This document shows, piece by piece, positions 22,931 through 25,027 of a stretch of DNA of 37,833 nt. How positions within the stretch are numbered: position 1 is the stretch's first letter; the number at the start of each line of letters is the position of its first letter. The notes beneath the pieces were generated by a model, which did not search any database, was not told the origin of the DNA, and was given only the letters and a program-made list of their open reading frames with translations. The position numbers were made by a program, and so were the translations under genes. The DNA is taken from the NCBI GenBank assembly GCA_031404215.1, contig JANNHC010000205.1, forward strand, positions 1 through 37,833, given 5' to 3'. The DNA comes from Acidobacteriota bacterium (GTDB lineage: Bacteria > Acidobacteriota > Vicinamibacteria > Vicinamibacterales > 2-12-FULL-66-21).

Positions 22931-23000
22931 TTGCCATGATTCGCAGCTCCACGTGCCGTCTTGCCGATATCAGGGATGTTGGCGATTTCGGCGTTGGCAT
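22903..23000. repeat. Imperfect inverted pair of 9-bp tandem repeats (ATTGCCANA-type / GATNTTGGC-type) overlapping the GT4 stop
   Basis: ATTGCCAGA ATCTTCAAA ATTGCCATA ATTGCCATG (22903-22938) faces GATATCAGG GATGTTGGC GATTTCGGC (22966-22992). The segment is AT-richer than its flanks. Confidence 0.6.
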
Positions 23001-23003
23001 TTC

Positions 23004-24005
23004 GTGAAAAAACTCATCATCCAGATCCCGTGCCTCAACGAGGCCACGACGCTGCCCGCGACCCTCGCCGACTTGCCTCGCGCCATCGCGGGCATCGACA
23101 TCGTGGAAGTGCTCGTCATCGACGACGGGTCGCGCGATGGCACGGCGGAGGTCGCGCTCAGCTGCGGCGTGGAGCACGTGGTGCGGCTGCGGCGCAACAA
23201 GGGGCTCGCGGCCGCCTTCATGGCTGGCATCGACGCGTCGCTCAAGGCCGGCGCGGACTTCATCGTCAACACCGACGCCGACAACCAGTACGCCGGCCAC
23301 GAAATCCCAAAGCTGCTCGCGCCGCTGCTGAGCGGTGACGCCGACATCGTGATCGGCGACCGCAACATCGGGGAGCTGCGGCACATGTCCTGGCGGAAGC
23401 GACAGCTGCAGCTACTCGGCAGCTGGGTCGTGCGGCAGGTTTCGAACACGAACGTGCCGGATACCACCAGCGGCTTCCGCGCGTACACGCGGGAGGCCGC
23501 GCTCCGCATGACCATCGTGTCGGAGTTTTCCTACACGCTCGAGTCGATCATCCAGGCGGGCAAGAAGAGGATGGCGATCGCGCACGTGCCGGTCTCGACC
23601 AACGCGCGCACCCGTGAATCCCGCCTGTTCGACAGCGTGTTCTCCTACATCAAGCGCTCGGCGGCCACGATCGTTCGGATCTACGCGATGTACGAGCCGC
23701 TCAAGGTCTTCACGTACCTGGGCCTCGCGGTGTTCGGCTCGGGCCTGGCGATCTCCGTGCGGTTTCTCTACTTCTATTTCACGAACAAGGGCGACGGGCA
23801 CCTGCAGTCGCTCATCGCGTCCGCCGTGCTGATGATTGTCGGATTTCAGGTGCTCGTCATCGGGCTGCTCGCGGACGTCATCTCGGGCAATCGAAAACTG
23901 CTCGAAGATCTCCTGTATCGCGTGCGATCGATCGAAGCGCCGCAGCACCGGGAGGCCGCGGATGCCCCGCCCGCGCTGTCCACCAAGGATCGGTGGGAGC
24001 GCTAG
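23004..24005 (+). CDS. GT2 glycosyltransferase, polyprenol-phosphate (DPM/ArnC/GtrB-like) type with two C-terminal TM helices
   Basis: IPCLNE, IDDGSRDGT, NKGL, TDADNQY and DTTSGFRAY, then a hydrophobic hairpin. GTG start at 23004. Confidence 0.9.
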   Translation: MKKLIIQIPCLNEATTLPATLADLPRAIAGIDIVEVLVIDDGSRDGTAEVALSCGVEHVVRLRRNKGLAAAFMAGIDASLKAGADFIVNTDADNQYAGHEIPKLLAPLLSGDADIVIGDRNIGELRHMSWRKRQLQLLGSWVVRQVSNTNVPDTTSGFRAYTREAALRMTIVSEFSYTLESIIQAGKKRMAIAHVPVSTNARTRESRLFDSVFSYIKRSAATIVRIYAMYEPLKVFTYLGLAVFGSGLAISVRFLYFYFTNKGDGHLQSLIASAVLMIVGFQVLVIGLLADVISGNRKLLEDLLYRVRSIEAPQHREAADAPPALSTKDRWER

Positions 24006-24167
24006 TGTCCCGTCCCCGTGGATCGTGGCATAAGTCCCGGAGCGCGGCGCCCGTCTGGCAAGGCGCGAGGAGCGAAAATATTGGGCATATTTGAGCGACG
24101 AGCAACGCCGCCAGGCGGGATGCCGCGCCCGGGAATTATGTCGCGAACCACGGGGACGGGACACTAG
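24002..24167. mobile_element. Miniature inverted-repeat transposable element (MITE), CTAG/TA target, probably IS630-like ends
   Basis: Perfect 20-bp terminal IR: CTAGTGTCCCGTCCCCGTGG (24002-24021) and CCACGGGGACGGGACACTAG (24148-24167). It extends imperfectly to about 58 bp per arm. CTAG at both ends; no transposase. The family assignment is an inference. Confidence 0.85.
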
Positions 24168-25027
24168 TGGCGGAACCGTCGGCGGTTTCAGTCGTCATCC
24201 CCGCCTACAACGAAGCGGACGTCATCGGCGAGGTCGTGACCGAGCTCGCGCAGGCCGCTGCGTGGCACGAGATCATCGTCGTGGACGATGGATCGCGCGA
24301 CGAGACCGCGTCGCGCGCCGCGGCGGCGGGCGCCATTGTCGTCTCGCATCCCTATAACAAGGGGAACGGCGCCGCGGTCAAGAGCGGGATCCGCCAAGCC
24401 TCCGGCGATTTCGTCCTGATCGTCGACGGGGACGGCCAGCACCGGCCGGACGACGCCCGGCGGATCGTGTCGCGGCTTGGCGAATACGACCTCGTCATCG
24501 GCGCTCGCGCGTCGTCCACGCAGGCGACGGCCGCCAGGCAGGTCGGGAACGCGGCGCTCAACAACCTGGCCAGCTATCTGACCGGCCGGGAGATTCCCGA
24601 TCTGACGTCCGGGTTCCGCGCGGCCCGCCGCGAATATCTGCGCGAATTCCTCCACCTGCTGCCAAACGGCTTCTCGACGCCGACGACGACGACGCTCGCG
24701 TTCATCAAGGCGGGCTATAACGTCACGTTCGAGCCGACCGAAGCGCGAACGCGCGTGGGCTCGTCCAAAATTCGTCTGGCGCGCGACGGGGCGAAGTTCC
24801 TGATCATCATCCTCAAGATCGTCACGTTGTTCAGCCCGTTGCGCGTTTTTCTTCCGATCAGCCTCGCGTGCTTCGCGCTCGGCGCCGCGTATGCCGCGTG
24901 GACGATCGCGACCCAGCAGCACATCACCAATTCCTCGGTGCTCCTCATCATGCTCGCGGTCATCGTGTTTCTCGTCGGCCTCGTGTCCGAGCAGATCTCC
25001 GCGCTGCGTTTCGAGGGGCGGCAGTAA
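24167..25027 (+). CDS. GT2 glycosyltransferase, polyprenol-phosphate type with two C-terminal TM helices
   Basis: VVIPAYNE, VDDGSRDET, NKGNGAAVKSG, VDGDGQH and DLTSGFRA, then a TM hairpin. Confidence 0.92.
   Translation: MAEPSAVSVVIPAYNEADVIGEVVTELAQAAAWHEIIVVDDGSRDETASRAAAAGAIVVSHPYNKGNGAAVKSGIRQASGDFVLIVDGDGQHRPDDARRIVSRLGEYDLVIGARASSTQATAARQVGNAALNNLASYLTGREIPDLTSGFRAARREYLREFLHLLPNGFSTPTTTTLAFIKAGYNVTFEPTEARTRVGSSKIRLARDGAKFLIIILKIVTLFSPLRVFLPISLACFALGAAYAAWTIATQQHITNSSVLLIMLAVIVFLVGLVSEQISALRFEGRQ

Follow-up and report, generated by a model that had tools for sequence, protein, structure and literature searches.

We analysed a 37,833-nt stretch of DNA from an Acidobacteriota bacterium of the order Vicinamibacterales (GenBank assembly GCA_031404215.1, contig JANNHC010000205.1), referred to throughout in its full length as the window; it is contig C205 of the genome that we label G000 (4.97 Mb in 751 contigs, 65.5% G+C). 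The window carries a co-directional row of genes consisting of ychF, a glycosyltransferase gene of the GT4 family, a GT2-family gene, a second GT2 gene, a PMT_2-like gene and a further GT2 gene, and the first two GT2 genes are separated by a 166-nt near-palindromic block at 24002-24167 that has CTAG at both ends (24002-24005 and 24164-24167). The analysis establishes the identity, copy number, ends, partner insertion sequence (IS) and empty site of this insertion: the 160 bp at 24005-24164 are very probably a miniature inverted-repeat transposable element (MITE), moved in trans by an IS630-family transposase into the TA of CTAG. The insertion itself is an ordinary event of known kind; what is new is its central core, which we find paired with two IS families and with a third type of target duplication, and which we have put to strand and covariation tests. 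The features of the locus are as follows, congeners being members of the same genus.

22953..24005, + strand: upstream GT2 gene (open reading frame (ORF); Pfam Glycos_transf_2, E = 9.9e-24; orthologues in 25/25 congeners).
23995..23999, + strand: GGGAG, read from the sequence, the likely original Shine-Dalgarno motif of the downstream GT2 gene (putative ribosome-binding role).
24003..24004, no strand: left copy of the duplicated target TA; the target is C-TA-G, with its C at 24002 and its G now at 24167.
24005..24164, + strand: the non-autonomous element (MITE) proper, 160 bp, delimited by copies, flanks and empty sites.
24005..24040, + strand: left arm, the outer ~20-30 nt of which are the terminal inverted repeat in common with an IS630-family element of genome G010.
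24040..24132, + strand (the structured strand): conserved structured core, on a 103.8-bit match to covariance model R1, covariation and strand tests.
24129..24164, + strand: right arm and terminal inverted repeat, including the Shine-Dalgarno-like GGGA at 24158-24161.
24165..24166, no strand: right copy of the duplicated target TA, read from the sequence.
24167..25027, + strand: downstream GT2 gene (ORF; Pfam Glycos_transf_2, E = 4.8e-29).

The ends of the block are exact inverted copies of one another: the 20-nt end CTAGTGTCCCGTCCCCGTGG occurs at 24002-24021 (+) and again at 24148-24167 (-) with 0 mismatches, where chance predicts 0.01 matches per window and none of 100 shuffles gave two. A repeat search of the window returned arms of 39 nt that are 90% complementary, and folding the block as RNA gives -134.3 kcal/mol versus -74.3 +/- 4.6 kcal/mol for 200 shuffles (z = -13.0), not one of which was equally stable; nearly all of the block is paired in a single hairpin, with pairing that extends ~75 nt per side. 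An earlier sequence-only reading of this DNA had described CTAG ends with 20-bp perfect inverted arms, which we find at 24002 and 24164 as it had placed them; it had also given imperfect arms of ~58 bp, and imperfect arms are indeed present, but that length is an underestimate.

The element sits precisely at the junction of the two GT2 genes. The upstream stop codon TAG (24003-24005) is made of the left TA copy and the first base of the element, a G, and the downstream gene starts with a GTG at 24167 whose G is the G of the original CTAG target; ORFs and Pfam matches thus uphold the statement in the sequence-only reading that the left TAG ends the upstream GT2 gene and that the last G begins the next one. 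The element has G as its first base and C as its last; CTAG is thereby restored at either end, and neither stop nor start is lost as a result. Excising 162 bp in silico yields ...GGGAGCGCTAGTGGCG.... The GGGAG at 23995-23999 now lies 168 nt from the downstream GTG, and at the empty sites of congeners GGGAG or GGGAC is retained 5-6 nt ahead of the start. A GGGA supplied by the element (24158-24161) stands 5 nt ahead of the GTG and within the stem, a placement that had been noted before and that sequence and fold both bear out. At 160 bp the element is below the 300 bp that bound a MITE, and it contains no ORF, the sole listed ORF that touches it (24091-24357, 88 aa) running out into the next gene in another frame. 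A scan of the element for sigma-70-like promoters returned none, no IHF site was found in it, and a scan of 23700-24500 for intrinsic terminators returned no terminator-like site and no U-tract.

Further copies, which the sequence-only reading had proposed to look for, are abundant. G000 holds eight full or near-full copies with 89-100% identity, on contigs C205, C265, C237, C196, C103, C305, C466 and C488, although those on C103 and C305 may be a single locus since they have one flank in common. Five fragments accompany them: those on C427 and C635 lie at contig ends, C263 has a decayed copy, C268 a lone end, and C671 a remnant of 32 bp. Of the 41 genomes of the order that were searched, 31 match the element: G000 itself, 18 of 24 congeners and 12 of the 16 from other families; a genome with matches often has tens of them. 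The intact flanks of the sub-family to which the window copy belongs are always CTAG, i.e. C-TA...TA-G. We also observed remnants in which the two tips are joined, one of 32 bp (G000:C671:42-73) and one of ~48 bp (L042, G010:C1 near 3270771), bounded by CTAG or by TGG...CTAG; these could be either internal deletions or abortive excision products.

The empty site is preserved in relatives. The GT2 pair is adjacent and, by its coordinates, free of the element in 25/25 congeners, and the downstream gene starts at the same position, with ATG or GTG, in all 11 congener junctions that were compared. Four of the 11 read CTAGTGG (G021, G024, G019 and G022), exactly the empty site that had been predicted from the window alone; four read TGATGG (G023, G008, G016 and G003), one reads TGAGTGG (G012), one has TAG five bases ahead of the GTG (G001), and one (G004) has a different insert of ~78 nt at the same CTAG. 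The insert in G004 (L066, G004:C14 ~1406808-1406961) carries CTCCCAA repeats and ends in GGGAG, 9 nt and then TAGTGG, which suggests that the same site was independently hit by another small element. In another congener the same cluster has a copy of the window sub-family where its second GT2 gene ends (G008:C533:3180-3345, within L070); this insertion is independent and lies ~0.9 kb away from the orthologous junction. Within the species the occupied form seems to be established: both flank-element junctions are present, with 0-1 mismatches, in the contigs of four runs, each from a different study (one of sediment, one of freshwater sediment and two of soil).

A transposase with matching ends, the search for which had likewise been proposed, is present in the congener G010. 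Its genome carries two copies of a 1,191-bp element lying between flanking TAs inside CTAG, and this IS encodes a 374-aa transposase that scores 259.6 bits against the NCBIfam IS630 model (NF033545; cut-off 100) and contains Pfam DDE_3 (E = 3e-19) together with helix-turn-helix domains; the transposase of the second copy is 98% identical. With CTAG included, the ends of the IS, which begin GTGTCCCGTCCC..., are identical to those of the MITE at 19/20 and 26/30 positions (25-26 of 30 across ends). One full-length copy of an IS630 element in G010 (L040, G010:C1:1313608) lies right on the TAG stop of a ychF-like gene, in the same geometry as the MITE of the window. Taken with the copies, the terminal repeats and the empty sites, the ends of this IS support the description of the block as a non-autonomous palindromic MITE that had been given from the sequence. 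A 1991 paper by Tenzen and Ohtsubo, cited in PMC2170065, concerns by its title the TA within 5'-CTAG-3'.

In the mechanism that we propose, an IS630-family (Tc1/mariner-type) DDE transposase acting in trans would recognise the ~20-30-nt terminal repeats, cut the element out and paste it into the TA of CTAG, duplicating the TA. The target here would be the CTAG of a TAGTG stop/start overlap between the two GT2 genes, and the result would be a coupled junction that is split by 162 nt of highly stable hairpin with the upstream TAG and the downstream GTG retained. Insertion at TA with duplication of the TA is stated for IS630/Tc1/mariner-type elements in an excerpt of PMC2170065, and the same excerpt covers the mechanism as shown for ISY100.

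Several observations count against this reading of the insertion. No IS630 copy with matching ends is found in G000, an assembly in 751 contigs in which absence is not proven, and the sole IS630-type gene seen there is 60% identical to the G010 transposase, is broken at contig ends and has other termini. The C-TA...TA-G flanks fit a 2-bp TA duplication and a 4-bp CTAG duplication equally. Finally, no joint that skips the element was found within the species in the contigs of the four runs from four studies, contigs being able to hide rare alleles; the missing joint is weak evidence because contigs drop rare variants. The 60%-identical IS630-type element of G000 is represented at C390:12038-12934, C190:3220-3333 and C378:5897-6010, and its two or more different downstream flanks indicate that it is multi-copy and breaks the assembly.

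The sequence-only reading had held that the element targets TAG stops. CTAG is ~16-fold depleted in G000, with 973 sites versus ~15,900 expected from base composition; by home-made gene calls that use long ORFs and codon usage (4,210 genes, 82% of bases), these sites divide into 255 C-TAG stops (26%), 243 within coding sequence and 475 between genes. Of the 4,210 heuristically called genes, 1,306 end in TAG. For the element we counted 23 full copies of the sub-family (8 in G000 and 15 in other genomes): the boundary TAG ends a long ORF in 10 of the 23, and a stop-element-start arrangement, with the start 0-19 nt past the other end, is seen in 7. The unpublished genome G022 contributes one of the 23 copies, one of the 10 at TAG stops, one of the 7 stop-element-start cases and one of the 4 empty sites reading CTAGTGG. 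The proportion 10/23 gives p = 0.055 relative to all CTAG sites and p = 0.26 relative to CTAG outside coding sequence, and does not clearly exceed what the availability of the target would give. The earlier claim therefore holds as far as the abutting TAG goes but not as regards the seeking of stops, the target being CTAG: the association with TAG stops follows from the choice of CTAG as target together with the loss of insertions inside genes, arrival at a TAG stop is mainly a side effect of targeting CTAG, and stop codons are not sought as such. The rarity of CTAG in high-GC genomes, with one site in four being a stop codon, explains why such elements lie at TAG stops there.

A further feature of the element is evident from its matches in other genomes, many of which span only positions ~36-131 of the block. 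Among 20 such loci from 13 genomes the central ~96 nt are 82-90% identical and the arms of ~35 nt are quite different, to the point of being unalignable between sub-families; nearly all 20 loci are bounded by CTAG. Core-bearing MITEs are also found with the ends of a second transposase family. The complete genome G111 contains a 1,470-bp IS in 8 copies, encoding a 458-aa transposase with DUF772 and DDE_Tnp_1 domains, the best NCBIfam match of which is IS1182 at 178 bits; since this score is below the cut-off of 270, we call the IS IS1182/IS5-like. Its ends begin CAGCCCGTGGTAAAAGTC and CAGTCCGAGGTAGAAGTC, and its target duplications are of 4 bp (TTCA, TCCA, TTGA, TCAA and GTTG). In the 12 core-bearing MITEs of G111 that were examined, the arms begin CAGCCCGTGGTG and match the IS ends at 14-17 of 20 bases, and 9 of them are flanked by perfect 4-bp duplications, which vary in sequence. 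In G191 a third class has GGG...CCC ends and direct 3-bp TTA/TAA repeats, perfect in 6 of 9 copies; no partner of this class was found, as the PF01609 matches in G191 and G192 have other ends and PF13359 was found in 0 of 5 genomes. The core thus recurs in MITEs with the ends of at least two transposase families.

To characterize the core, named species genomes were scanned with an exact pattern made of the two most conserved stretches (26 columns fixed), which returned at least 120 loci. The alignment comprises 104 of the 113 distinct cores and the window copy (n = 105); L081, L088, L101, L108, L118, L151, L165, L170 and L174 were left out for large indels or truncations. In a 33-pair structure 89.6% of cells are paired, versus 29-37% when the partners are slid by 1-3 columns, and the covariation score is 0.297 versus 0.104 in shuffles, with 0 of 500 shuffles as high. 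Individual pairs flip outright: pair 30-66 is CG in 45 sequences, GC in 43, AU in 9, UA in 3 and other in 5, and pair 34-61 is GC in 52 and CG in 37. The structure is interrupted by G.A steps, three in tandem (layout 5'-GA N GA SS GA / GA S'S' GA N' GA-3'); of their six positions, five are conserved in 92-103 of the 105 sequences and the remaining one in 60. Further irregularities are two bulges, AA and AAC, and an invariant G.U adjoining a bulged A. The search pattern had fixed the AA and AAC columns and a single A in the first G.A step; the other structural columns were left free. The two strands are not equivalent: G.U cells number 163 and A.C cells 46, the better fold is that of the top strand in 95 of 105 sequences, and for the whole window element the structured strand folds at -129.0 kcal/mol versus -110.8 kcal/mol for the other strand. 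Judged by these sequence comparisons, the central ~93 nt is not filler: it forms a strand-specific hairpin that compensatory changes have maintained.

A coding core was considered and rejected. The GAN GAN frame is broken by 1-2-nt indels in the apical part or between the halves, and an in-frame stop occurs in the TTA/TAA-flanked class; as the 1-2-nt indels break any common frame, coding is ruled out. Rfam 15 gave nothing above threshold for the window, where the best matches were MIR918 (49.5 bits, threshold 268) and VA (30.9 bits, threshold 62), and at five other core-bearing loci only a tRNA matched. Full-text literature yielded no description of the element or the core; this includes an excerpt of PMC11602168, the supplementary MITE lists of which lay outside the search and could hold them.

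The core is widely distributed. Going by the depositors' own taxon labels, 84 of the at least 120 loci listed are of Acidobacteriota type (Vicinamibacter-, Acidobacteri-, Terriglobia, Marinacidobacterales and Luteitalea labels) and 36 are other, under the labels Myxococcales, Polyangia, Kofleriaceae, Gammaproteobacteria, Pseudomonadota, Ectothiorhodospiraceae, Desulfobacterales, Thermodesulfobacteriota, an unclassified metagenome-assembled genome (MAG) and Nocardioides sp. BE266; among the 36, the labels Phycisphaeraceae, Bifidobacteriaceae and Spirochaetia occur at one locus each, and these three may be binning or label errors. R1, a covariance model built from the core alignment, finds 10 copies in G000 and positives in 21 of 151 genomes of an evenly drawn phylum sample, a count that includes G000 and the unpublished G087. 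By the same model there are 97 copies on many contigs of G191, a MAG labelled Gammaproteobacteria, 47 and 61 in the Vicinamibacterales chromosomes G189 and G190, 6 in the Desulfobacterales MAG G192 and 2 in the Nocardioides isolate G188, the copy number per genome thus reaching about 100. The exact core pattern gave 0 matches in viral contigs, phage records lying outside the search, and blastn of the core gave 0 matches in plasmids.

Some copies lack the terminal repeats altogether. At L198 (G190:C1:2300704-2300964) two tandem cores without terminal repeats stand 166 nt apart beside a tRNA gene, and in these cores the apical stem is replaced by a GC-rich hairpin. In Nocardioides sp. BE266 the spacer that separates groES (Cpn10, E = 9e-38) from groEL (Cpn60, E = 4e-74) is filled by L195 (G188:C1:698488-698589), a diverged core that likewise lacks terminal repeats; the mRNA there carries the complement of the G.A strand and then a U-rich tract.

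Copies of the core are more common at the 3' ends of genes, with 70 flanking genes pointing in and 41 pointing out (p = 0.008), and along the G111 chromosome the strands of 28 listed copies alternate. Selection seems to act on the element family itself. A specific function of the core is a prospect that, from the alignments, we would put close to but short of an even chance; if the core does act, it would do so in single-stranded form, and we lean modestly towards RNA over DNA. Such a core would help the elements to spread or to be tolerated, probably by binding a conserved host factor. Our tentative proposal, to which we give somewhat less than even credence, is that the core is a previously undescribed structured module (RNA or single-stranded DNA) that has been taken up repeatedly by unrelated DDE transposons of the IS630 type, the IS1182/IS5 type and the 3-bp TTA/TAA type, with an advantage gained through a host factor. 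Should the core be functional, it would provide a concrete RNA/DNA motif to probe and a widespread family for RNA and repeat catalogues, and it would bear on why some bacterial MITE-like repeats, ERIC for example, exceed selfish filler in conservation. ERIC is unusually conserved between species.

The proposal has to be set beside evidence that does not favour it. The spread of the core beyond Acidobacteriota, itself a new observation, is a spread across phyla by depositors' labels; the exact-pattern scan fixes 26 columns and the related copies that it returns are not independent; and between co-directional genes there is no orientation bias (8 sense versus 10 antisense, p = 0.81), so that a function of one strand in host mRNAs is unlikely. 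Moreover, within the window sub-family the arms and the core are about equally conserved, at 85-91% per segment in 15 copies from other genomes. The last point would be expected if the cores were alike through recent common descent and horizontal spread, with repair or gene conversion between the arms preserving the hairpin and with no function at all, and the patchy occurrence in 21 of 151 genomes of the phylum sample is likewise what is expected of mobile DNA; covariation counts, too, overstate the number of independent events because the copies are related. Common descent without function is the main rival to our proposal, but we nevertheless consider it doubtful. Between sub-families the arms are unalignable and the core remains 82-90% identical; the G.A steps and the AA, AAC and A bulges are fixed while neighbouring pairs flip from C-G to G-C, and since repair towards a perfect palindrome would erase fixed non-complementary positions, this argues against descent and repair as the explanation. 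The excess of G.U over A.C (163 versus 46) marks one strand.

The effect of the element on translation of the downstream GT2 gene, which the sequence-only reading had raised as a possibility, was modelled by folding 23960-24230 and holding bases open to mimic a ribosome stalled at the TAG. In the free mRNA the probability of being unpaired is 0.000 for the GGGA and 0.19 for the GTG. When 23990-24016 or 23990-24019 is held open these values become 0.19-0.26 and 0.33-0.44, and when only the upstream stretch 23960-23999 is open they are 0.000 and 0.008, with no release. In the free mRNA, then, the new initiation region would be buried in the base of the stem, and a ribosome terminating at the upstream TAG would melt that base and let the downstream GT2 be translated; with stop and start side by side at the foot of the hairpin, coupling would persist through space. 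Two features speak against such a route, namely that release of the initiation region is only partial in the folding model and that the Shine-Dalgarno-like motif of the element is weak (GGGA only). On the folding model we regard it as an even chance that re-initiation by ribosomes that have terminated at the upstream TAG would account for most translation of the downstream GT2 gene. The insertion amounts to a natural experiment, in which a coupled stop/start overlap is split by a hairpin of -134 kcal/mol with both genes intact.

A junction of this kind makes one ask if the insertion has been taken over by the host, to set the ratio of the GT2 proteins or to attenuate the operon, and is kept by selection. 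The occupied allele recurs in the contigs of four runs, each from its own study, where either junction matches with 0-1 mismatches, and 7 of the 23 sub-family copies have the stop-element-start arrangement with the start within 19 nt, as a host device might; but the site is empty in 25/25 congeners, the arrangement follows from the availability of CTAG, and the element contains no promoter- or terminator-like site. We consider host takeover improbable.

It is far less probable still that the window sub-family was moved by an IS5/IS1182-type transposase with a 4-bp duplication of CTAG. Another core-bearing sub-family does pair with an IS1182/IS5-like element, and CTAG flanks fit a 4-bp duplication as well as they fit a TA duplication; yet the ends in the window match those of the G010 IS630-family element at 19/20 positions, and that IS too lies in CTAG. 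IS1182-like ends begin CAGCCCGTGG, not GTGTCCCGTC, and the duplications of MITEs of the IS1182 type vary in sequence, whereas the intact flanks of the window sub-family are all CTAG.

A strand-specific hairpin with conserved unpaired positions and high copy number is also what one would see in a repetitive extragenic palindrome (REP/REPIN-type element) moved as single-stranded DNA by a RAYT (IS200-like Y1) transposase. Here, however, Y1_Tnp (PF01797) is found in only 1 of 5 core-rich genomes, with none in G000 or in the complete genome G111, and there are clear terminal repeats, target duplications and matching IS partners of the DDE type, which makes such an origin highly unlikely. A fixed, non-mobile structured RNA gene, riboswitch or terminator of this operon, which a very stable fold inside a co-directional gene row might suggest, is scarcely credible for an element that is dispersed in many unrelated contexts, is missing here in 25/25 congeners, belongs to no Rfam family (best 49.5 bits versus a gathering threshold of 268) and has no U-tract terminator.

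As a MITE of the IS630 type, the window element is readily compared with known systems. It resembles RUP, a MITE attributed to IS630-Spn1, in being small and non-coding, with IS630-family-like terminal repeats, insertion at TA and many intergenic copies (excerpt of PMC2229807, which is also the source for the other repeats below). RUP differs in its length, 107 bp versus 160 bp here, and that excerpt states that it lacks any signature of structure or function beyond the terminal repeats; the window element, in contrast, resides in high-GC Acidobacteriota of soil and sediment, has CTAG as its target and contains a covarying core common to MITEs of other transposase families. The IS630/ISY100 elements are like the G010 partner in having one transposase gene (helix-turn-helix and DDE_3), short terminal repeats and TA flanks inside CTAG; the window element has no transposase gene and resembles the IS in its outer ~20-30 nt only.

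Correia elements (NEMIS) of Neisseria are similar in size (~100-155 bp) and have terminal repeats and TA ends; the account excerpted from PMC2229807 has them co-transcribed with their neighbours, with a long RNA hairpin proposed to affect mRNA fate via RNase III. They differ from the element described here, in which no IHF site or outward promoter was found, and whereas the internal segment of Correia elements is optional, the core is here the most widely shared part. ERIC (IRU) of enterobacteria is likewise imperfectly palindromic, comparable in length (127 bp), bounded by TA and co-transcribed, its effect on the upstream mRNA (stability) depending on a ribosome-induced change of fold (PMC2229807, excerpt). 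The effects of ERIC are orientation-dependent and the core copies here are without orientation bias; and whereas the excerpted text names no partner transposase for ERIC, two partner IS families are found here.

We also looked among IS630 elements for partners of the other CTAG-bounded arm families. Candidates in G039, in G010 (the 60%-identical type) and in G189 were rejected, as the copies have other ends, and for two IS630 copies in G032 no ends could be defined. G039, a member of the order, has 81 matches to an IS630-family transposase (L230, L235 and L245, on three contigs, are among the examples); most of these matches represent a 1.14-kb CTAG-bounded element, of which the copies compared are ~99% identical, and the expansion looks like a recent burst.

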